The notes beneath the pieces are model-generated. The model worked only from the letters and a program-made list of their open reading frames with translations. It did no database searches and was not told where the DNA came from. From the NCBI GenBank assembly GCA_031402225.1, contig JANNSD010000023.1:11612-75611 (forward strand): 64,000 bases of DNA, in the 5' to 3' direction. Within the stretch, counting starts at the first letter, position 1; the number at the start of each line of letters is the position of its first letter. The stretch comes from Gemmatimonadota bacterium. GTDB lineage: Bacteria > Gemmatimonadota > Gemmatimonadetes > Gemmatimonadales > GWC2-71-9. A program made the position numbers and the translations under genes. Positions 2,164-42,893 of this stretch are shown piece by piece.

Positions 2164-3396
2164 TCACGCACCGGGTGTTTGGGGGAGGCGGAGGACAAAG
2201 CGGCCCCCGCCGCCCGGATTGGCCTCGGCGAACAGGTCACCCCCCAGGAGTCGCGCGAGCCGGCGTGACAGCGGGAGGCCCAGCCCGACCCCGCGCGCCT
2301 CCTCGCCCGCCTTGGTCTCATAGACGTCGAAGATCCGATCGAGGTCATCCTCCGGCACACCGGGGCCGCTGTCCTCCACCCGGAACAGGAGTGAGGTGCC
2401 CCCCTCGGGCCCGACCCGGAGCAGCACCAGGCCGCCGACCGGGGCATGTCGGACCGCGTTGTTGAGCACATTGCCGAGGATCTGTTCCACCCGCATTGCA
2501 TCGGTCATGCAGGTTGGCATGGCCGCCGCCAGTTCGCTGCGGAGCTCAATGCTGCGCTGGGCGGCGGCCGGTGTGGCGTGGCTGATGGCCCGCCGGGCTA
2601 CGGCGGCGGGATCGACCGCCTGCAGGTTGGGCCGGAGGCGATCTTCGTCCAGTCGGGACAGGTCGAGCAGGTCGTTGATGAGGTCCACCGCCTGGCCCGC
2701 CGAGTCGAGCACCTCGAACGCGGCGCGGGGCACGGTGGCGGGGTCCTTCTTCCGGACCATCATCTCCGCCCAGCCATAGACGCCCGCAATGGCATTGCGC
2801 AGCTCGTGGTTGACCATCGCGAAGAACCGTTCCCGCGCCCGCTGCAGTCCCTGCACTTCCTGGAGCAGTCGGGCGCTCTCGCCGTGCAGCCGCGCGTTCT
2901 CGACGGCGGCAGCGGTCTGGGCGGCCAGCAGCAGGCCCACGTACTCATCCTCGTCGGTGAAGAGGCCCCCGCCCAGCTTCTCGGTCATGTACAGGTTGCC
3001 GAAGACGCCCCGGCGTCCAACGATCGGCACGCCGAGAAAGGAGTGCATCGGCGGATGGTGCGGTGGGAAACCGAACGAATCGGGGTGCTTTTCGAGGTTG
3101 GGCAGGCGCACGACTGCGGCCTTGCGGATGACGAGCCCGAGGATGCCGTGGCCTCGGGGCAGGGCCCCGATCTGGTGGCGATGCTCGGGGGTGATGCCGG
3201 CGGTGGTGAAGCTCTCGAGGGCGCGGCCATCGGGTGCCAGCACGCCAAGCGCTGCATACCGGCAGTCGATGAGTTCAACCGCGACGTCGGTGACTTTCTG
3301 CAGTACGCGCTCGAGCGAGGTTTCTGTCGCGAGCGACAGGCTGGCATCGAGCAACCGCTCGAGCCTGAGCTGCGTGGTCGGTTTTGGCGGGGTCAT
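2164..3396 (-). CDS. Soluble GAF-domain sensor histidine kinase
   Basis: 410-aa ORF with no hydrophobic TM segment. N-terminal GAF-like region (HGILGLVIR..., HPDSFGFPPHHPPMHSFLGVPI, GNLYMTEK), H-box FFAMVNHELRNAIAGV, and ATPase boxes LGNVLNNAVRHAP, VEDSGPGVP, GVGLGLPLSRRLARLLGG. Confidence 0.85.
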   Translation of the reverse strand: MTPPKPTTQLRLERLLDASLSLATETSLERVLQKVTDVAVELIDCRYAALGVLAPDGRALESFTTAGITPEHRHQIGALPRGHGILGLVIRKAAVVRLPNLEKHPDSFGFPPHHPPMHSFLGVPIVGRRGVFGNLYMTEKLGGGLFTDEDEYVGLLLAAQTAAAVENARLHGESARLLQEVQGLQRARERFFAMVNHELRNAIAGVYGWAEMMVRKKDPATVPRAAFEVLDSAGQAVDLINDLLDLSRLDEDRLRPNLQAVDPAAVARRAISHATPAAAQRSIELRSELAAAMPTCMTDAMRVEQILGNVLNNAVRHAPVGGLVLLRVGPEGGTSLLFRVEDSGPGVPEDDLDRIFDVYETKAGEEARGVGLGLPLSRRLARLLGGDLFAEANPGGGGRFVLRLPQTPGA

Positions 3397-16251: not shown

Positions 16252-17163
16252 TCAGGCTATCCGGAATGCCCTGCTGCTGCGCGCCGCCAGGTGCAGCGCG
16301 CCGTCGAGCGGGTCCACTGGCATCTGTTGCGCCCGCACCAGGGGCATCGCCGCCAGGCGCGCCAGTACCCGGTCACGGAGTGGGCTCCCGGGCCCGAGCA
16401 GGCTGCCGGCCAGTGCCACCGGCACCGGTTGCGGCTGCGTAATCTGGTCGGCCAGGCGGGCCACCAGCTCCGTGAGCTCCAGGGCAGCGTAGGCAGTGAT
16501 GCCCTCCGCGACCGCGTCTCCCGCGGCCGCCACCGCCAGCACCACCGATGCGAGGGCGGCGACCTCGCCCACCGCCGCCGTGGTGCTCCAGCGCACCAGG
16601 TCGTCCAGCCCCGCGCATCGCTGCACCCGGAGCAGCTCGGGGGTAAGCAACGTTTCCTCACCGCGCCCGTCGGCCGCGCGCCCCACCGCCACCAGCGCGA
16701 GGCGGGCAATGGCATAGCCGCTTCCCTCGTCGCTCATCTGCCAGCCGTAGCCGCCCTGCCGGAATGAATCACCCGTGGCGTCGCGGCCCACCGCGATGCT
16801 GCCGGTGCCAGCGCTCAGCACGATGCCCGGGCCATCGCCGAACGCGGCGGCCTCGGCCAGTTCGACATCGGTCACGACCACCACGCGCTCGGCGACTGCC
16901 TCGCCTCGCAGTGCCTGACCGAGCTCCCGTCGCTCCACCTCCCGCCCAACACCCGCGGCGCCCACCACGAGGGTCTCAGCGCGCAGTACGCCGGCGTTGG
17001 CGAGTACCCGTCGCGCCTGTTCCGCGATGACACCCGCCGCCGCGAGTGCGCGACCGGGGCGCACCGCCCCGGCACCACCCAGCGCCTGGCCCACGGCTTC
17101 CCCGTCCTTCCAGGCCACGGCCCGTGTCTTCGAACCGCCCGCATCGACTCCGACGATGATCAC
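16252..17163 (-). CDS. BadF/BadG/BcrA/BcrD-type ATPase (N-acetylglucosamine/MurNAc-kinase-like sugar kinase)
   Basis: C-terminal 303 codons of track ORF 16252..18528, starting at GTG 17163 (GTGA overlap with the symporter stop). VIIVGVDAGGSKTRAV..., GIVLSAGTGSIAVG, GGYGWQMSDEGSGYAIA. The upstream 450 codons of the track ORF are an out-of-frame shadow of the symporter. Confidence 0.75.
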   Translation of the reverse strand: MIIVGVDAGGSKTRAVAWKDGEAVGQALGGAGAVRPGRALAAAGVIAEQARRVLANAGVLRAETLVVGAAGVGREVERRELGQALRGEAVAERVVVVTDVELAEAAAFGDGPGIVLSAGTGSIAVGRDATGDSFRQGGYGWQMSDEGSGYAIARLALVAVGRAADGRGEETLLTPELLRVQRCAGLDDLVRWSTTAAVGEVAALASVVLAVAAAGDAVAEGITAYAALELTELVARLADQITQPQPVPVALAGSLLGPGSPLRDRVLARLAAMPLVRAQQMPVDPLDGALHLAARSSRAFRIA

Positions 17164-18653
17164 GAGGCGATCTCCGGCGTGCGTGGTGTGCTGCGCAGCA
17201 TGATACTCGATGCCACGCCCGTCCCGACGGCCAACAGCGTGCCGAGCGGCACGTACCACGGCCAGGCGAGGCGTCCCACCGGGGCGAGCCACTCGAGGCC
17301 GCCCATCGTCGCGATGCGTGACGCGAAGACTACCACGAGCATCACACTCACCGTCACGGTGACGGCCGCGATCACGTCGCGCGTGCGTGCCCGGGGCCAG
17401 CGACCCGCAAGCACATACGTGCCGAGCAGTGCGCCATAGGTGATCGACGCGATGGAGAGCGCCAGGACCACGGCAGGCGTGTCGGCCTTCGAGGCCGCGA
17501 CGTGAAAGCCGAGCGCCGCGATGATGAGGCCGATGCCCCACACCAGCGACACGAAGCGCCCGACGCGCAGGAGGTGCACCGGATCCCGGCGACCCGTGAT
17601 GGACGCGTAGAGATCGTACGTCACCGCCGAGGCGAGCGCGCTGATCGCCGAGCTGTGGCTGCTCATGGCGGCGGCGAGGATGCCCGCGATCACCAGGCCG
17701 GCAATGCCGCCCGGCAGGGCATGCACGATGAATCCGGAGAACACTTGGTCGCCCGGCATGCCATCGGGTGCCAGGCCCACCGACCAGATGGCGATACCCA
17801 CGAGCAGGAAGAGCGCGAACTGCAGCATCACGACGATGCCGGAGCCGACGAGCGCCACCTGCGCGTCGCGGAGCGAGCGCGTGGCGAGCAGGCGCTGCAC
17901 GATGAGCTGGTCGGTGCCATGCGATGCGGCGCTCAGGAGGGCGCCGCCCACGATGCCGCCGAGCAGCGTGTACGGAATGGTGAGCGAGAGGGCGGGGTTG
18001 ATGAGGGTGAGCTTGCCCGCCTCGGCCGCGCGCGCCAGCACGGGGCCGACCCCTCCGCCAAGGCGGGTCGCGATCCAGAGGGCCGCGATGCCGCCGGTGA
18101 CGTACACCGCGAGCTGCAGCACGTCGGCCCACACCACGGCCTTGAGCCCGCCGAACCAGGTGTAGATGAGTGTCGCGATCCCCATGACGATGATCGCAGC
18201 CGGAACGCTCCAGCCGGTGATGAGCGCCAGCGGCACCGCGCCGGCGAAGACACGCACGCCGTCCCCCAGGAAGCGCGTCACGAGGAACACGACCGAGGTG
18301 ATGCGCCGGGCCTCCGGGCCGAAGCGCCGTTCCAGGCGCTGGTAGGCGGTCTCCTGCTCCCCGCGGAAGTAGCCCGGCAACAGCCACGCGGCGACGCCGA
18401 CGCGGCCGATGAAGTAGCCGATGGTGAGCTGGAGAAAGGTGAGGTTGCCGCGGGCGCCGATCCCCGGCACCGAGATCACGGTGAGCGCGGACGTCTCCGT
18501 CGCCACGATGGAAAGCATGACCGCCCACGCCGGCAGGTCACGCGCACCGAGGAAGTAGTCGCCCGCTGACGACTGCCGCCGTGACACCCAGAGCCCGAGG
18601 GCGAGGGTGAAGACGAAATAGGCGGCAATGACCGCGAGGTCGAGGGGTCTCAT
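17160..18653 (-). CDS. Sodium:solute symporter (SSS) family transporter
   Basis: 497-aa ORF: MRPLDLAVIAAYFVFTLALGLWVSRRQSSAGDYFLGARDLPAWAVMLSIVATETSALT..., with about 13 hydrophobic segments. This is the typical SSS N-terminal signature. Confidence 0.85.
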   Translation of the reverse strand: MRPLDLAVIAAYFVFTLALGLWVSRRQSSAGDYFLGARDLPAWAVMLSIVATETSALTVISVPGIGARGNLTFLQLTIGYFIGRVGVAAWLLPGYFRGEQETAYQRLERRFGPEARRITSVVFLVTRFLGDGVRVFAGAVPLALITGWSVPAAIIVMGIATLIYTWFGGLKAVVWADVLQLAVYVTGGIAALWIATRLGGGVGPVLARAAEAGKLTLINPALSLTIPYTLLGGIVGGALLSAASHGTDQLIVQRLLATRSLRDAQVALVGSGIVVMLQFALFLLVGIAIWSVGLAPDGMPGDQVFSGFIVHALPGGIAGLVIAGILAAAMSSHSSAISALASAVTYDLYASITGRRDPVHLLRVGRFVSLVWGIGLIIAALGFHVAASKADTPAVVLALSIASITYGALLGTYVLAGRWPRARTRDVIAAVTVTVSVMLVVVFASRIATMGGLEWLAPVGRLAWPWYVPLGTLLAVGTGVASSIMLRSTPRTPEIAS

Positions 18654-18684: not shown

Positions 18685-18715
18685 TCACGACCCACGACTC
18701 ACGACTCACGACTCA
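18685..18715 (-). repeat. Heptamer array (TGAGTCG)x3-TGGGTCG-TGAG starting at the IscA-like stop codon
   Basis: Plus strand: CTCACGAC CCACGAC TCACGAC TCACGAC TCA. On the minus strand, TGA top positions are 18715 (the gene stop), 18708, 18701 and 18687, so all three frames are covered. Confidence 0.8.
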
Positions 18716-19084
18716 AACAGTAAAGCTGCTCCCGCACCCGCACCCGCCGCTGGCGTTCGGGTTGGTGAACGTGAAGCCCGATCCCTGCATGGAGGTGACG
18801 TAGTCCACGACCACGCCGGACAGGTACTGGGCGCTGAAGCCATCGACAAAGACCCGGACGCCGTTCACTTCCTGCACCATGTCGTCGTCCAGCGAGGCTT
18901 CCTCGATGTTCAGGCTGTACTTGAACCCGGAACAGCCACCCGGCAGGACGCTGACCCGCAGGCCGGCCGTCTCTTCGGGAACCTGCTCGGCGGCGATGAA
19001 CTTCCTTACCTCGGTGACGGCGGCAGGCGTGAGGACCAGCTGAAATCCGCTGGGGGCCTGCGTCTGCTCACTGGTGCTGCTCAT
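18713..19084 (-). CDS. HesB/IscA/ErpA-family iron-sulfur cluster insertion protein
   Basis: Internal ATG 19084 of ORF 18713..19123 gives MSSTSEQ.... LRVSVLPGGCSGFKYSL and the C-terminal GGCGCGSSF are the three conserved Cys ligands of the A-type carrier family. Confidence 0.85.
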   Translation of the reverse strand: MSSTSEQTQAPSGFQLVLTPAAVTEVRKFIAAEQVPEETAGLRVSVLPGGCSGFKYSLNIEEASLDDDMVQEVNGVRVFVDGFSAQYLSGVVVDYVTSMQGSGFTFTNPNASGGCGCGSSFTV

Positions 19085-19192: not shown

Positions 19193-20944
19193 TCACGGTT
19201 TGGCGGGCAGCGCCGGGACCATGAGACCCGCACCCAGCGGAATTCCAGGCGGAATCGGCACCGGCGTGCGGCCGGAGATGGCCGCGCCGGTGAGGGCGCC
19301 GGCAACCGCCCATTCGGTATTGGCATTGGACGCCCATCCCAGCAGGACGGTGCCCAGCCCTGGCACCTGCGCGCCCACGTACGGCGAGCCCAGCGAGACG
19401 AACACCGTGGGGCGCGTGCGCGCGGTGCTGTCCACCAGTCGGGCAAGCAGGTCGGGCATGCCGATCGTGCCGCGTCCGGCAAAGGCGCGGATCGCCACGG
19501 CAACGATCGCCACCGGTGCGGTGGCAAGCACGGTGCGCGCCGAGTCGTAGCTCGCGGGCCCGCTGGCCGGCGACAGCCGAAACATCGCGATCGTGTCGCC
19601 GCGGGCGCGCAGCTCGCTCAGCAGCGTGGTGCCCGCCGTGGGGTTCAGCTCATCACCGTAGACGATGACACCGCGGCTGCCACGCTGGCGCCTGACACCG
19701 TCGAGCGCCCCGTCGCGGTCACTCAGCAGCACCACCGAACGGGATGCTACCGCGCGCGCGGTATCGCGGAAGGCGGCGTTGCCGACGATGTCCATGACGT
19801 GGTCGAGTGGCACGGTGCGATGCTGGAACAGCCCGACCTTCGCCTTCATCTGCAGCACCCGCCGCACCGAGCGCTCCAGGCGGGCCTGGGTGAAGCGTCC
19901 CTGCTGCAGCGCGGCGGTCATGGCGTCGATGAGGACAGCCGGGTCGGCGGGCTGCAACAGGATGTCCGCCCCGGCGAGGAAGGCGAGTACGCCCGCCTCG
20001 CCGGCCCCGTATCCCGCCAGGAGGCCGCCCATGTTGAGTGCGTCGGTGACGATGACGCCCCTGAAGTGCAGCGAATCGCGCAGCACGCCCGTCAGTATGG
20101 AGGGCACCAGCGTGGCCGGGGTGGGGGAACCGGTGTCGAGCGCGGGCAGGGCCATGTGCGCTGACATCACCGCGGCCACACCCGACTCGATGGCACTGCG
20201 GAACGGCACCAGTTCCACGGTGTCGAGGCGCGACCACGGCACATTCAGCAGCGGCAGTGCCAGGTGCGAGTCGATTTCGACATCGCCGTGACCCGGGAAG
20301 TGCTTCGCGGTCGCCAGCATCCCGTGCTGCTGCAGGCCCTGTATCTCCGCCGACACGAACCGGGCCACCGCGCGCGGGTCCGCGCCGAACGAACGCGTGT
20401 TGATGATGGGGTTGGCCGGGTTGCTGTTCACGTCGGCGACCGGGGCGAGGGCGACGTGGATGCCCACCGCGCGACCCTCCAGCGCCGTGATGCGGCCCAT
20501 GGCGTACGCGTCCCCGTCCCGTCCGGTCGCTCCGATGCCCATATTGCTGGGGAAGGTGGTGCCGCCCGTCAGCCGCAGGGCGGTGCCCGCCTCGAGGTCC
20601 GATGCGATGAGAAGCGGCACGCGCGCTCGCCGCTGCAGGCTATTCAGCTTGGCGGCAATATCGAGCGGCGACCCGATCGACACGAGCAGCCCGCCGACGC
20701 GGAGGGAGTCGACCCACCCGATGATTTTCGCGAGCGCGGGATCATCGTCCGCCAGGTAGGTGCCGGCGATCCAGGGCATCACCAGTTGCGCGATCTGCTC
20801 GCGCGGCGTCATCCGGGCGAGCACTCGTTCCACCTGACCGCTCCGCCCGCCAGCGGTAGACTGGCTCGCGCACGGCGCCACGATCAGCGACAGGCAGGCC
20901 GCCACCAACAGGGGTACGGAGGAACGATGCGTCAGTGGCGCCAT
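19193..20944 (-). CDS. Secreted glycoside hydrolase family 3 (beta-N-acetylhexosaminidase/NagZ-like, with extra C-terminal domain)
   Basis: C-terminal 583 codons of track ORF 19193..22180, from ATG 20944. Signal-like MAPLTHRSSVPLLVAACLSLIVAPCASQ. GH3 motifs KHFPGHGDVEIDSH and RGVIVTDALNMGG. The upstream 412 codons of the track ORF are antisense to the DUF1343 gene. Confidence 0.85.
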   Translation of the reverse strand: MAPLTHRSSVPLLVAACLSLIVAPCASQSTAGGRSGQVERVLARMTPREQIAQLVMPWIAGTYLADDDPALAKIIGWVDSLRVGGLLVSIGSPLDIAAKLNSLQRRARVPLLIASDLEAGTALRLTGGTTFPSNMGIGATGRDGDAYAMGRITALEGRAVGIHVALAPVADVNSNPANPIINTRSFGADPRAVARFVSAEIQGLQQHGMLATAKHFPGHGDVEIDSHLALPLLNVPWSRLDTVELVPFRSAIESGVAAVMSAHMALPALDTGSPTPATLVPSILTGVLRDSLHFRGVIVTDALNMGGLLAGYGAGEAGVLAFLAGADILLQPADPAVLIDAMTAALQQGRFTQARLERSVRRVLQMKAKVGLFQHRTVPLDHVMDIVGNAAFRDTARAVASRSVVLLSDRDGALDGVRRQRGSRGVIVYGDELNPTAGTTLLSELRARGDTIAMFRLSPASGPASYDSARTVLATAPVAIVAVAIRAFAGRGTIGMPDLLARLVDSTARTRPTVFVSLGSPYVGAQVPGLGTVLLGWASNANTEWAVAGALTGAAISGRTPVPIPPGIPLGAGLMVPALPAKP

Positions 20945-22156
20945 GCCTTGGGTCTTTCGCTCGCGGGTCTGCTGGGATGGGGGTGCGTCGCGGCACAGGC
21001 GCCACCGGCCGCTGCCGTCGTCCGCCCCGGTATCGACGTGCTGGTCGAGGACAGCCTGCACCTGGTTGCCGGTCGCGCCGTTGGACTGCTTACCAACCAC
21101 ACTGGCGTGGACCGGCGCGGCATCTCCGATGGCGAGCGGCTGCGTGCCGCCGGGGTCAACGTCGTCGCACTCTTCACCCCGGAGCACGGCCTCCGCGGGG
21201 CCGCCGATCCCGGCGCCGCCGTGGCCTCGACCCGGGATCCCACCACCGGGATTCCAATCTACAGTCTCTACGGACCGAGCCTCGCGCCCACGCCGGCGAT
21301 GCTCACCGGGGTGCAGGTGGTCCTGGTGGACCTGCAGGATGTGGGCGCGCGCTACTTCACCTACATCTCGACCACCATCGAACTGATGCGAGCGGCGGCG
21401 GTCGCGGGCATCCCCGTTATCGTGCTCGATCGCCCGAACCCGGTTGGCGGTGCCGTGCAGGGCAACGTGCTCGACAGCGCCACCCGGTCGTTTGTTGGCA
21501 GCCTCTCGGTGCCGATGCGGCACGGACTGACACTGGGTGAACTCGCGTTGCTGGCGAAGCGCGAGCGTGGGCTCGCCACCGCACTCAGCGTGGTGCCGGT
21601 CTCGGGGTGGCAACGATGGCAGTACTTCGACGACACCGGGGTGCCGTTCGTGCCGCCGAGTCCCAACCTGCGTGACCTCGAAGGCCTGATCCACTATTCC
21701 GGCACCTGCCTCTTCGAGGGTACCAACCTGTCGTCGGGTCGCGGAAGCGATGCCGCGTTCTCTCAAGTGGGCGCGCTGTGGCTCGACCCCTTGGCGGTGC
21801 TGGCGCGGCTGGGGCCCGAGGCCGGGGTGACCCTGTCCCCAACCACCTTCACCCCCCGCCAGCCCGGCGACGGGAAGTACGCCGACACCCTGCTGCAGGG
21901 AATCCGGCTCCGGGTCACAGACCGTGCCATCTACGACCCCCCGGCCACGGCGCTCCGGCTCCTGGTCGCCATCCGGGCGGCGCACCCCGCTGAATTCGCC
22001 TGGATTGCCGCTCATTTCGACCGACTCGCCGGCCAGCCGGGGCTTCGAGAGGCGCTGGAACGCGGAGCTCCGATCGACTCGATCCTGAAGGCCTGGGCAG
22101 GGCAGCGCGCGGCCTTTGAGCCTCGGGCGGCCGGGATCCGCCTCTACCCGCAATAG
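20927..22156 (+). CDS. DUF1343-family protein (exo-beta-N-acetylmuramidase NamZ-like), secreted
   Basis: ATG 20927 within ORF 20264..22156, preceded by GGAGGA (20918-20923). Signal-like MRQWRHALGLSLAGLLGWGCVAAQA, then GLLTNHTGVD, FTPEHGLRG, VLVDLQDVGARYFTYISTT, VLDRPNP, PSPNL. This matches my recollection of DUF1343. Confidence 0.8.
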   Translation: MRQWRHALGLSLAGLLGWGCVAAQAPPAAAVVRPGIDVLVEDSLHLVAGRAVGLLTNHTGVDRRGISDGERLRAAGVNVVALFTPEHGLRGAADPGAAVASTRDPTTGIPIYSLYGPSLAPTPAMLTGVQVVLVDLQDVGARYFTYISTTIELMRAAAVAGIPVIVLDRPNPVGGAVQGNVLDSATRSFVGSLSVPMRHGLTLGELALLAKRERGLATALSVVPVSGWQRWQYFDDTGVPFVPPSPNLRDLEGLIHYSGTCLFEGTNLSSGRGSDAAFSQVGALWLDPLAVLARLGPEAGVTLSPTTFTPRQPGDGKYADTLLQGIRLRVTDRAIYDPPATALRLLVAIRAAHPAEFAWIAAHFDRLAGQPGLREALERGAPIDSILKAWAGQRAAFEPRAAGIRLYPQ

Positions 22157-22260: not shown

Positions 22261-22905
22261 GTGAAGGCGCTGAAGGCGCTGGAGCGGCCTTTTTTCGCCG
22301 TATTCCGGCCGCTCGTCGACTGGTTGATAGCGCACCGGGTGCATCCCAACACCATCACCACTGTTGGTACGGCGCTCGTGCTCGCCTCGGCGGTTTTCTT
22401 CGGGGCGGGCCACGTGCGACTGGGAGGGCTCTTTTACCTGCTCAGTGGCATCGTGGACACGATCGATGGACAGGTGGCGCGTAACGGTGCGATGGCCACC
22501 CGGTTCGGGGCGTTCTATGACTCAACGCTCGACCGGATCGGGGATGGTGCCATCTTCGCGGGCGTGGGCACCTACCTGATGTTTGCGCCCGGCGTGGCCT
22601 ACCGGGAGCTCAGTGTCATCGTCTGCATGGTGGGGATCATCGCGTCGCTGGTCGTGTCGTACGCGCGCGCGCGCGCTGAAGGGCTGGGCCTGGAGTGCAA
22701 GGTCGGTATAGCCCAGCGGGCCGAGCGCATCCTGCTGCTGGGCATCCCGCCGCTGCTGTTCGGGGCGGGTCCGGGCGGCATCTACCTGCAAGTCATCGTC
22801 GTCCTGCTGACCGCGCTGGGGCTCATCACCGTTGTCCAGCGCATCGTGTATGTGCACGGTGCGGCCAACGCCGCGGATCTGGCCGGGCTGCAGGACCGGG
22901 AGTAG
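22261..22905 (+). CDS. CDP-alcohol phosphatidyltransferase (candidate phosphatidylinositol-phosphate synthase)
   Basis: 214-aa ORF (GTG start) with the family motif D-x2-DG-x2-AR-x8-G-x3-D-x3-D, read as DTIDGQVARNGAMATRFGAFYDSTLDRIGD, plus about 6 hydrophobic segments. Substrate assignment rests on the adjacent MIPS gene. Confidence 0.85.
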   Translation: MKALKALERPFFAVFRPLVDWLIAHRVHPNTITTVGTALVLASAVFFGAGHVRLGGLFYLLSGIVDTIDGQVARNGAMATRFGAFYDSTLDRIGDGAIFAGVGTYLMFAPGVAYRELSVIVCMVGIIASLVVSYARARAEGLGLECKVGIAQRAERILLLGIPPLLFGAGPGGIYLQVIVVLLTALGLITVVQRIVYVHGAANAADLAGLQDRE

Positions 22906-22939
22906 GCCGGTCCGTCACACCAGCGGAAAGGAAGCACGC

Positions 22940-24268
22940 GTGGCAGACAAGGGCGCACGGTCGATCGCGAAGGCCGAGGGCAGGCTCGGAGTGCTCACGG
23001 TCGGACTCGGGGCGGTCGCAACGACGTTCATCGCCGGCGTGGAGCTGGCGCGGCGGGGCATTGCGAAGCCGTACGGCTCGCTGACGCAGCTCGCCACCAT
23101 CCGCCTGGGCAAGCGCACCGACGGGCGCACGCCGCTCATTCGCGATTTCGTGCCGCTGGCGTCGCTCGACGATCTCGTCTTCGGCGCCTGGGACCCAATT
23201 CCGGACAACGCCCACGAGGCCGCCCTCAAGTGTGGCGTGCTCGACAAGCATGAGCATGTGGCACCGATCGCCGACTTCCTGAAGGCCATCACGCCCATGC
23301 CCGCGGTGTTCGACCGGAGCTACGTCAAGCGACTCGAGGGCACCAACGTCAAGGGCGGGAAGACCAAGCGGGAGCAGGCGGAGGCGCTGCGGCAGGACAT
23401 CCGGGCCTTCAAGGCGAAGCACAACTGCAGCCGGCTCGTCATCGTCTGGTGCGCGTCCACCGAGATCTTCATCGCCCCGGGGGCGGCCCACCAGACCGTC
23501 GCGGCGCTGGAGAAGGCCATGGAGACAAACGACGCCACCATCGCGCCCTCGATGCTGTATGCCTGGGCCGCCATGATGGAGGGCGTGGCGTTCATGAACG
23601 GCGCGCCCAACCTCTGCTGCGACATTCCCGCCATTGAGCAGATGGCCCGTGACCGGAAGGTCCCGATCGGCGGCAAGGACTTCAAGACCGGCCAGACGAT
23701 GCTCAAGACGGTGCTGGCACCGATGTTCAAGGCGCGCATGCTCGGGGTGGCCGGCTGGTACTCCACCAACATCCTCGGCAATCGCGACGGCGAGGTCCTG
23801 GACGATCCCGAGAGCTTCAAGACGAAGGAAGAGTCGAAGCTCGGCGTGCTCGAGTACATCCTGCAGCCGCAGGTCTATCCCGAGCTGTACGGCAACATCT
23901 TTCACAAGGTGCGGATCAACTACTATCCGCCGCGGGGCGACAACAAGGAAGGCTGGGACAACATCGACATCTTCGGGTGGCTCGGCTACCCGATGCAGAT
24001 CAAGGTCGATTTCCTCTGCCGTGACTCCATCCTGGCCGCACCGCTGGTGCTCGACCTCGCCCTTTTCTCCGACCTGGCCCAGCGCGCCGGGATGTCGGGG
24101 GTGCAGGAGTGGCTCTCGTTCTACTTCAAGAGCCCGCAAGTGGCGCCGGGGCTGTACCCGGAGCATGACCTCTTCATCCAGCAGACCAAGCTCAAGAACA
24201 CGCTGCGGTGGATGATGGGCGAGGAACAGATCACTCACCTGGGCGTGGAGTACTACGGGGAAGCGTGA
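22940..24268 (+). CDS. ino1: myo-Inositol-1-phosphate (inositol-3-phosphate) synthase
   Basis: GTG 22940, preceded by GGAAAGGAAG, within ORF 22832..24268. Rossmann start LGVLTVGLGAVATTFIAG, then FMNGAPN, GKDFKTGQTMLKTVLAPMF, GWYSTNILGNRDG, and INYYPPRGDNKEGWDNIDI. This is the bacterial/archaeal MIPS pattern. Confidence 0.88.
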   Translation: MADKGARSIAKAEGRLGVLTVGLGAVATTFIAGVELARRGIAKPYGSLTQLATIRLGKRTDGRTPLIRDFVPLASLDDLVFGAWDPIPDNAHEAALKCGVLDKHEHVAPIADFLKAITPMPAVFDRSYVKRLEGTNVKGGKTKREQAEALRQDIRAFKAKHNCSRLVIVWCASTEIFIAPGAAHQTVAALEKAMETNDATIAPSMLYAWAAMMEGVAFMNGAPNLCCDIPAIEQMARDRKVPIGGKDFKTGQTMLKTVLAPMFKARMLGVAGWYSTNILGNRDGEVLDDPESFKTKEESKLGVLEYILQPQVYPELYGNIFHKVRINYYPPRGDNKEGWDNIDIFGWLGYPMQIKVDFLCRDSILAAPLVLDLALFSDLAQRAGMSGVQEWLSFYFKSPQVAPGLYPEHDLFIQQTKLKNTLRWMMGEEQITHLGVEYYGEA

Positions 24269-24290: not shown

Positions 24291-24581
24291 ATGAAGTATT
24301 TCCATCGGACCCACCAGGCGCCGGCCCTCGTGCTGGCGCAGTCAGCGGAGTTTTTCGGCGGACGCCTCGCGCCCACCGAGGAAGCGCCGAGCCGTCGCCG
24401 GTTCGGCGGTGCCATCGGGCATGTGAGCATCACGGCCGCCGCCGAGGGCGGGCATTACACCCTGGTCACGGTCGAGACGGACCAGCCGGGGGAGAGTGAA
24501 GTTGATCGTTTGGCCAAGCGGTTCCTTACACTGGTGCACGCGGCGACCGATCCCGGTCATGTCGTGCGCGGCGCCTACTAG
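24291..24581 (+). CDS. Hypothetical 96-aa protein
   Basis: ORF with coding-like codon bias between MIPS and the pyrophosphatase. No motif recognised (MKYFHRTHQAPALVLAQSAEFFGG...). Confidence 0.4.
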   Translation: MKYFHRTHQAPALVLAQSAEFFGGRLAPTEEAPSRRRFGGAIGHVSITAAAEGGHYTLVTVETDQPGESEVDRLAKRFLTLVHAATDPGHVVRGAY

Positions 24582-24606
24582 TTCCGACAACCCAGGAGAT
24601 GCCAAG

Positions 24607-27045
<2,439 letters not shown>

Positions 27046-42780: not shown

Positions 42781-42809
42781 TTCTCGCAACTGCTGCTTTG
42801 GGTATCCAG

Positions 42810-42893
42810 TGCCGAAGGGGGGACTCGAACCCCCACGGGCTTGCGCCCACTGCGCCCTGAACGCAGCGCGTCTACCAGTTCCACCACTCCGGC
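42810..42893 (-). tRNA. tRNA-Leu (anticodon CAG), long variable arm, no encoded CCA
   Basis: Reverse complement GCCGGAGTGGTGGAACTGGTAGACGCGCTGCGTTCAGGGCGCAGTGGGCGCAAGCCCGTGGGGGTTCGAGTCCCCCCTTCGGCA. It has a 7-bp acceptor stem, anticodon stem CTGCG/CGCAG with loop TTCAGGG, a long extra arm, and T-arm GGGGG-TTCGAGT-CCCCC. Confidence 0.9.

Follow-up and report, generated by a model that had tools for sequence, protein, structure and literature searches.

Overlaps between divergent genes, in which the two 5' ends cover the same letters, are the rarest class of gene overlap and are strongly under-represented (PMC2174442). One survey counted 457 of them among 42,055 annotated overlaps and another 331 among about 15,000 (PMC2478687, PMC2174442), and every divergent overlap longer than 60 bp was judged to be a 5' misannotation (PMC2478687). 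The accepted reason for the rarity is that the start signals of transcription and translation are hard to fit into the reading frame of a partner gene (PMC2478687, PMC2174442). The present analysis concerns such an overlap between the genes for two putative peptidoglycan glycosidases, a GH3 beta-N-acetylglucosaminidase of NagZ type and an exo-beta-N-acetylmuramidase of the NamZ family, in a stretch of 64,000 nucleotides (nt) from a Gemmatimonadota bacterium (contig JANNSD010000023.1; the whole stretch, with about 70% G+C, is called the window). In Bacillus subtilis, NagZ and NamZ are secreted, encoded in one operon and co-expressed, and they take GlcNAc and then MurNAc off peptidoglycan fragments; exo-muramidase activity has been demonstrated for the B. 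subtilis NamZ only (PMC8054146).

An earlier note on the window, made from its letters alone, had pointed to this junction and had called divergent 5' overlaps rare, a statement that the annotation surveys back (PMC2478687, PMC2174442). Comparison with related loci makes it highly probable that the junction is a conserved, genuine 5'-5' overlap of two exported peptidoglycan exo-glycosidase genes. The main point that goes beyond the note is that the overlap appears to have been kept clade-wide while its length varied.

The junction in the window

The two genes and the predicted elements of their shared 5' ends are as follows.

20927..20944, strand. (unstranded): overlap ATGCGTCAGTGGCGCCAT, 18 nt, head-to-head, with codons exactly antisense (positions 1-3, 2-2, 3-1)
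20927..22156, plus strand: NamZ-family exo-beta-N-acetylmuramidase gene, 409 amino acids (aa), start ATG 20927, opening MRQWRHALGLSLAGLLGWGC
19193..20944, minus strand: NagZ-type two-domain GH3 beta-N-acetylglucosaminidase gene, 583 aa, start ATG 20944, opening MAPLTHRSSVPLLVAACLSL
20918..20923, plus strand: NamZ Shine-Dalgarno sequence GGAGGA, 3-4 nt ahead of the NamZ ATG; its antisense is TCC TCC, Ser8-Ser9 of GH3
20924..20926, minus strand: GH3 Arg7 codon CGT, between the NamZ Shine-Dalgarno sequence and the NamZ ATG
20927..20986, plus strand: NamZ export signal MRQWRHALGLSLAGLLGWGC, with n-region, hydrophobic core and conserved Cys20
20864..20944, minus strand: GH3 export signal MAPLTHRSSVPLLVAACLSLIVAPCAS, with n-region THR, hydrophobic core and probable cleavage CAS|QS

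The GH3 ATG is the CAT at 20942-20944 of the plus strand, and His-6 (CAT) in each protein is the ATG of the other, just as the earlier note had read them; its 18-nt reciprocal overlap between ATG 20927 (plus) and ATG 20944 (minus) and its reading of GGAGGA as Ser-Ser of the minus-strand gene were recovered at the same positions. There is no intergenic DNA between GH3 and NamZ at this junction. Each gene's translation start region coincides with the first codons of the partner's signal peptide, and the GH3 n-region owes its Arg to the CG just ahead of the NamZ ATG. Later in-frame starts, namely TTG 20948 for NamZ and TTG 20908 or GTG 20905 for GH3, delete the charged n-region, as the note had said.

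Apart from GH3 and NamZ, one clear divergent pair is present in the window: a histidine kinase gene (ending at 3396) and a universal-stress-like gene (from 3479). They are separated by a spacer of 82 nt with lower G+C, which served as the normal divergent junction within the window. With this pair spaced by 82 nt, a genome-wide habit of divergent overlap is not obvious, and a sample so tiny cannot settle the matter.

Retention of the overlap among relatives

By scanning species-representative genomes and metagenome contigs, 160 loci were gathered, and the divergent GH3/NamZ pair was present in all Gemmatimonadales-type loci having upstream flank. With ATG or GTG accepted as the NamZ start and ATG, GTG or TTG as the GH3 start, every clade locus with an in-frame junction and a canonical GH3 start yielded a reciprocal head-to-head start pair. 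These 56 loci with both starts fixed comprise 28 from the genome scan (27 relatives and L081, a Logan contig identical to the window) and 28 from metagenomes. The overlap is 6 nt long in 13 of them, 9 nt in 15, 12 nt in six, 15 nt in one, 18 nt in 15 and 21 nt in six; the 6-nt forms include GTGCAC, ATGCAT and ATGCAC, and the partner's start codon is decoded as His (CAT or CAC) or Gln (CAA). One of the 18-nt forms is that of L023, a metagenome-assembled genome of Gemmatimonas. Distant metagenome loci, searched in the same way, gave no reciprocal start pair (0/23); where both starts of distant loci (Longimicrobiales-type, other Gemmatimonadota and Acidobacteriota) were picked automatically, the spacer measures 44-217 nt.

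A neighbour-joining tree built from 53 full-length NamZ proteins requires at least 11 changes of overlap length, the ancestral length inferred is 9 nt, and no lineage shows a spacer. The overlapping state is old, because NamZ identity inside the clade drops to about 47-50%. An alignment of orthologous loci, which the earlier note had proposed as a check, found the overlap and both export signals conserved in the clade loci. In three further loci (L015, L020 and L075) NamZ and GH3 are split into out-of-frame pieces, and the reciprocal codons become visible once the frame is followed; these breaks, in MFD-series metagenome-assembled genomes that are probably long-read, are probably assembly indel errors and not biology.

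Another arrangement of the same genes is found in Longimicrobiales-type and other Gemmatimonadota loci (L030-L046; e.g., L030 48-1700 and 1894-3540), where two tandem GH3 genes stand upstream of NamZ with a real spacer to it, which measures 44-106 nt in the loci that allowed both starts to be picked. Nine loci have both GH3 copies, and in eight of them the distal copy scores slightly higher against the window GH3 (about 41-45% vs 38-41% identity). The head-to-head junction might have been born by loss of the proximal tandem copy.

Coding constraint on both reading frames

Distances across the junction were measured between a NamZ core, the motif RPG(I/L)(E/D)VL, and a GH3 core, the motif AQL(V/I)MP. 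The 55 distances measured fall on 21 distinct values between 195 and 348 nt, each of them 0 mod 3; in the distant loci the core distances split 24/12/11 over the three relative frames. At least 20 length changes, all of whole codons, therefore leave no sizeable non-coding stretch between the cores. In L007, L009, L022, L023 and L026 the GH3 frame is closed by an in-frame stop 6-15 nt upstream of the chosen start, and in several loci such a stop stands closely upstream of the NamZ start. Because orthologues carry these stops, neither frame can be extended farther upstream, and such extensions were discarded.

The partner's start codon is also visible in the proteins themselves. Histidine accounts for about 2% of residues elsewhere in these proteins, against its presence among residues 2-7 in 50/56 NamZ and 56/56 GH3 sequences; for the six NamZ proteins lacking it, the GH3 start picked is TTG or, in L113, a GTG that falls at a NamZ position outside residues 2-7. 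In the 18-nt subclade, represented by 14 loci with 12 distinct sequences, four elements are invariant: (A/G)TG, CAT, the CG preceding the ATG, and GGA within the Shine-Dalgarno sequence. The base ahead of this CG is free to vary; it is the third position of GH3 Arg7. Such a pattern would be expected from a translated GH3 n-region and not from a plain NamZ leader, and it indicates selection on the GH3 frame upstream of any downstream alternative start. G+C at third codon positions (GC3) in the non-overlapping N-terminal stretches is 0.77 for NamZ (core 0.82) and 0.83 for GH3 (core 0.87). As would be expected of a genuine divergent overlapping pair, both starts fall within the partner's frame and both N-terminal extensions appear to be constrained as coding sequence.

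Export signals

N-termini of the 56 orthologue pairs were evaluated by sequence rules (PROSITE PS51257 and Kyte-Doolittle (KD) hydropathy). GH3 carries Lys or Arg in the first 10 residues in 56/56 and a hydrophobic core (8-residue KD mean of at least 2.0) in 56/56. For NamZ, Lys or Arg is found in the first 8 residues in 47/56, the best 8-residue KD mean reaches 2.0 in 51/56, and a Cys follows at least seven uncharged residues in 53/56. The window values are 1.92 for NamZ, just below 2.0, and 2.70 for GH3. Both proteins have a positive charge followed by a hydrophobic stretch of at least eight residues, and both are predicted on this basis to carry Sec-type export signals.

The PROSITE lipobox rule, {DERK}(6)-[LIVMFWSTAG](2)-[LIVMFYSTAGCQ]-[AGS]-C with the Cys at 15-35 and Lys or Arg within the first 7 residues, is obeyed by 34/56 NamZ and 29/56 GH3 sequences, and the GH3 orthologues failing it resemble type I signals ending AxA|Q. 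The window NamZ misses the rule solely through Trp at -2; the window GH3 misses it through Arg at -10 of Cys17 and Pro at -1 of Cys25. The window proteins are best called carriers of putative export signals with a conserved Cys, not proven lipoproteins, and for the window GH3 a type I signal that ends in CAS|QS is probable. The earlier note had seen a complete signal peptide beginning at each of the two Met codons. The export signals stand, while the window copies just miss a canonical lipoprotein signal; the loss of a signal peptide from one of the proteins in relatives, which the note had named as a result that would speak against it, was not seen, since export signals are kept at both N-termini.

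Start choice and public annotation

Gene calls in public databases place the starts differently. On L081, NamZ was called at its full 409 aa, and GH3 was shortened to 546 aa without a signal peptide by the use of a later codon.

20831..20833, minus strand: GTG (Val38), the GH3 start in the L081 call, with GGAG 7 nt upstream

This start was rejected, for the 93 nt upstream of it keep an in-frame export signal and the junction changes only by multiples of 3. The frame lock between the cores rules out the 93-nt gap that the call creates; a spacer of a few bases is compatible with it. Prodigal is the usual caller for assemblies of this kind. Its rules bar 5' ends on opposite strands from overlapping (PMC2848648), and if Prodigal was the caller, the L081 call is for that reason not independent evidence.

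One relative's NCBI record (JAEKKZ010000036.1; L163 1476-1481) has NamZ and GH3 annotated with a 6-nt 5'-5' overlap, GTGCAC. Another (JBOHSE010000278.1; L162 3001-3006) contains the identical GTGCAC, but there NamZ was called at 387 aa, starts 72 nt away and is without a signal peptide. Database GH3 N-termini of the relatives (P0001-P0028) include the full n-region in some cases (MTQQTHR..., MRQQTHR..., MHAKLL...), and in others begin within the hydrophobic core (MILGLAAC..., MVLVLAGC...) or after the signal (MEANPSAILDS...). Avoidance of the overlap by gene callers would produce just such inconsistency, and localisation predictions made from these GH3 calls would conflict with one another. 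The locus thereby exposes a blind spot in gene calling: overlap of this kind is barred in Prodigal (PMC2848648), and here one partner is often called short, with its export signal lost. Shortened calls would mislead the placement of an enzyme inside the cell or in the periplasm.

Signals for translation and transcription

The duplex of the NamZ Shine-Dalgarno sequence with its anti-Shine-Dalgarno partner is worth -9.5 kcal/mol in the window, and the median over 28 loci is -6.9, against -2.8 kcal/mol at internal start-like codons (p 7e-12, kinship ignored). By this measure NamZ translation is led by a Shine-Dalgarno sequence, and the GH3 site is at most weak. Candidate starts with a strong site were found for about half of the window genes and in 18% of internal control windows; because only about half of the genes have one, the weak GH3 site is not unusual here. 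The antisense of hydrophobic and Ser/Leu/Phe codons is purine-rich, so a Shine-Dalgarno sequence is easily written inside the partner's signal peptide.

Signals for transcription were looked for in several ways. TANNNT hexamers within 300 nt upstream of either start showed no positional pile-up over 31 representative loci; the few GTAGTT-type hexamers upstream of NamZ are not general and were set aside as the antisense of a conserved GH3 Asn-Tyr motif. A rise in A/T from -26 to -3 upstream of both starts was likewise dismissed as a promoter, since hydrophobic signal-peptide codons read in antisense account for it. No constrained synonymous sites or conserved A/T third positions were found in NamZ codons about 32-90, a possible place for a GH3 promoter. 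An inverted repeat of 14 nt (20892-20905 / 20935-20948; 86% complementary) could form a stem containing the GH3 AUG, with the NamZ Shine-Dalgarno sequence and AUG in its loop. It was rejected as an RNA structure, as its folding is no better than that of shuffled sequences (z +1.4 and +0.2) and it is missing in relatives. Over the 31 loci there is no excess RNA structure (junction z-scores average +0.2 to +0.3), no conserved operator-like or inverted repeat was found at the junction, and Rfam has no family there, the whole-window scan giving a single tRNA. A literature search for transcription-start data from Gemmatimonas found none.

Weighing the alternatives

Several observations weigh against a genuine overlap. 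The start assignments rest on heuristics and sequence comparison, and the loci are phylogenetically related, so p-values overstate independence. L028 (3916-3940) has no ATG, GTG or TTG for GH3 at the homologous place, its frame reading ...GGRHRPLLGALVILLAAC; this may be a non-canonical start, a sequencing error or a degraded signal. L006 and L011 become abutting genes with a 0-nt overlap under the most conservative start rule. Both window N-termini fail the strict PROSITE lipobox rule, a significant GH3 Shine-Dalgarno sequence is absent (median -3.45, window -1.9 kcal/mol), and neither a sigma-70-like promoter nor a terminator was found in a scan of 20300-21600, within 650 nt of the junction. 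Every locus of the window's subclade offers a GTG or TTG where the GH3 hydrophobic core begins, and its use would leave an 18-nt spacer. One alternative is that a start codon has been misassigned and one gene, most likely GH3, begins downstream at TTG 20908, GTG 20905 or GTG 20833, with a short spacer and an upstream frame that is merely a long-frame artefact of 70% G+C. Precedent favours it, in that the annotated divergent overlaps above 60 bp in one survey were all judged 5' misannotations (PMC2478687); so do the GGAG ahead of GTG 20833 in the L081 call, the poor Shine-Dalgarno context of ATG 20944, the GTG/TTG at the hydrophobic-core start in every 18-nt subclade member, and the many database GH3 products that start downstream. 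However, truncated calls made with Prodigal are not independent (PMC2848648), and in one relative NCBI does annotate the overlap. With a start at 20833, 93 nt would become non-coding, but these hold an n-region, a core and a Cys or AxA in 56/56, have coding-like GC3, and belong to a junction whose 21 lengths are all multiples of 3. A start at 20908 or 20905 fails to explain His-6 of NamZ, the variation of GH3 Arg7 at its third position only, and the Lys/Arg n-region in 56/56. Misassignment is therefore judged decidedly unlikely, and both starts are very probably real, the main residual doubt concerning a GH3 start at the beginning of the hydrophobic core. The overlapping starts proposed in the earlier note are thus supported by reciprocal pairs in 56 loci, by the frame lock and by the export signals.

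If the overlap is genuine, it may be asked whether it is selected as a regulatory device, with face-to-face promoters and 5' mRNA ends complementary over both ribosome-binding regions, acting by transcriptional interference or by mRNA-mRNA pairing and double-strand cleavage. The geometry makes an antisense 5' overlap unavoidable, the arrangement survived at least 11 length changes without ever reopening, and B. subtilis co-regulates these functionally linked enzymes (PMC8054146); reciprocal regulation has also been proposed for opposite-strand overlapping genes (PMC2174442). Against this, mutual exclusion has no obvious benefit for enzymes of one shared pathway, the length and sequence of the overlap are unconserved beyond the needs of coding and start signals, no promoter motif, constrained synonymous patch, conserved inverted repeat or excess RNA structure was found, and a functionless ratchet explains the persistence equally well. 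A selected device is on balance unlikely. Its boldest form, in which the overlap is an ancient selected coupling, pairing of the 5' mRNA ends sets NagZ and NamZ output by mutual titration or co-degradation, and conserved 5'-5' coding overlaps are perhaps common and hidden by Prodigal, would have to be called quite improbable. Another possibility is that one or both mRNAs are leaderless, starting at the A or G of the start codon with a -10 element in the partner's first codons, so that only 6-21 nt would be antisense. Leaderless genes are frequent in several high-G+C phyla, where TANNNT lies around 10-12 bp upstream of the start codon (PMC3160421), and GH3 is without a significant Shine-Dalgarno sequence. 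But no TANNNT stands at that position for either gene (0/31 representative loci; the nearest hexamers end 22 nt upstream), NamZ has a strong conserved Shine-Dalgarno sequence and so is leadered, and GTG and TTG are frequent at the GH3 start. In model organisms these codons are poorer than ATG for leaderless initiation. Leaderless initiation was accordingly set aside as very unlikely.

Proposed architecture and its persistence

For a genuine overlap, the account that best fits these observations is one of tolerance. The overlap would be tolerated since signal-peptide n-regions need little besides a start codon and positive charge. The spacer would have been lost at the base of this Gemmatimonadales clade, and the resulting state would then be hard to leave: an in-frame insertion in the overlap would lengthen both proteins without separating them, and adoption of a downstream start would delete the charged n-region. 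In such a ratchet the overlap could slide between 6 and 21 nt and would never reopen.

The consequences for expression follow largely from position. The plus-strand region upstream of NamZ is antisense to the GH3 gene string for 4.7 kb, and the minus-strand region upstream of GH3 is antisense to NamZ and the genes following it. With no intergenic DNA, the NamZ 5' untranslated region (UTR) and both promoters must lie inside the partner frame or beyond it. Geometry thus forces the promoters into face-to-face positions within or beyond the partner's coding sequence, and makes the mRNAs complementary over at least the overlap and the NamZ leader. The earlier note had placed promoters and 5' UTRs in the partner's coding sequence and had deduced antisense 5' ends, and this much follows. 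The best guess is that the complementarity causes at most modest reciprocal interference and is not why the overlap persists. Since the two enzymes work together and conservation does not go beyond coding and start signals, a neutral architecture is favoured over a selected antisense switch; the excludon-like mutual regulation that the note had raised is speculative.

Gene identities and neighbourhood

The assignment of the plus-strand protein rests on Pfam matches to NamZ_N (PF07075; E 4e-74, 248.9 bits, cut-off 26.9) and NamZ_C (PF20732; E 6e-36, 124.9 bits, cut-off 25), the two domains spanning residues 52-407. Both lie above the gathering score, which places the protein in the NamZ family (former DUF1343), and its relatives in the PDB are the solved DUF1343 proteins 4k05 and 4jja. 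From this family assignment it is predicted to be an exo-muramidase acting on non-reducing-end MurNAc. The minus-strand protein matches Glyco_hydro_3 (PF00933; E 2e-80, 270.9 bits). Its top PDB matches are 3sql, 6k5j (a GH3 beta-N-acetylglucosaminidase) and 3bmx/4gyj (the B. subtilis lipoprotein YbbD/NagZ), and its match to B. subtilis YbbD has E 8e-62; with PF00933 and closest solved relatives that are N-acetylglucosaminidases, it belongs to the NagZ-type GH3 proteins. Its translation contains KHFPGHGDVEIDSH, in keeping with what we take to be the NagZ signature, KH(F/I)PG(H/L)Gx4D(S/T)H.

Downstream of GH3 on the same strand, three further genes were assigned from the gene calls and Pfam matches of the identical contig L081, and one RNA gene was found elsewhere in the window.

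18713-19084, minus strand: HesB/IscA-like gene (PF01521)
17160-18653, minus strand: sodium:solute symporter gene
16252-17163, minus strand: gene for a BadF/BcrAD-type sugar-kinase-like ATPase
42809-42893, minus strand: tRNA-Leu (anticodon CAG), the sole Rfam or ARAGORN match in the window

The minus-strand string of GH3, HesB-like, symporter and BadF-type genes is in keeping with an amino-sugar salvage locus. The HesB/IscA-like gene, for Fe-S biogenesis, that lies between GH3 and the symporter is an odd member of such a string. Within it, the symporter stop and the start of the BadF-type gene share GTGA (17160-17163, minus strand), an ordinary same-strand 4-nt overlap. On the 3' side of NamZ, the plus strand at 22261-24268 carries a CDP-alcohol phosphatidyltransferase gene and a myo-inositol-1-phosphate synthase gene, both of which recur beside NamZ in the relative L162 and suggest inositol-lipid synthesis. 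The open reading frame that follows (24496-27045) encodes a long membrane protein, by its sequence a putative proton-pumping pyrophosphatase.

Comparison with known systems

Complementary 5' ends that cover a ribosome-binding site and start codon are familiar from RNA-IN and RNA-OUT of IS10 and from face-to-face promoter pairs. Only one of the two IS10 RNAs codes for a protein; at the present junction both do, with promoters placed by geometry. Excludons and overlapping 5' UTRs of Listeria and Staphylococcus join genes whose coding sequences do not overlap; a long UTR is involved, the functions are usually opposing, and the transcripts have been seen experimentally. The GH3/NamZ pair resembles them in being divergent neighbours with 5' antisense transcripts, here deduced from geometry, and differs in that the functions are cooperative. 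An excludon is defined by a long antisense transcript of one gene that covers and represses a divergent neighbour of opposing function. As NagZ and NamZ act in sequence in one pathway (PMC8054146), the pair was not placed in the excludon class. Same-strand overlaps of 4 nt or 1 nt, such as ATGA and GTGA, are likewise very short and involve a start codon; they couple ribosomes on one mRNA (PMC10666635), whereas a head-to-head overlap belongs to two mRNAs and allows no such coupling.

With respect to function, the nearest counterpart is the B. subtilis murQ-murR-murP-amiE-nagZ-namZ operon (ybbD, ybbC), in which the same enzyme families are adjacent, both exported and act sequentially (PMC8054146). 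There nagZ and namZ are co-directional in one operon; here they are divergent, overlapped at their 5' ends, and cannot share a transcript. The locus would therefore offer a natural test bed for promoters within coding sequence, for complementary ribosome-binding regions, and for antisense or interference effects on two cooperating enzymes.

With respect to structure, the closest systems are the catalogued divergent overlaps (Lillo and Krakauer 2007; Palleja et al. 2008), whose 5' ends also overlap by a few codons, with a start and a Shine-Dalgarno sequence in the partner's frame. The exact-antisense phase found here, 123:321, is that of 25-30% of the catalogued divergent overlaps (PMC2174442, PMC2478687). 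The catalogued cases come from single-genome annotation with suspected start errors; here 56 loci were compared, and the overlap is retained while its length varies. A divergent coding overlap, of a class usually dismissed as annotation error, thus has comparative backing, and suggests that bacteria can place divergent genes with no intergenic DNA between them and maintain this over long divergence. As judged from these alignments, the locus appears to be a member of the known, rare class of divergent overlaps, unusual in the breadth of its comparative support and in its retention across a large clade within one order.

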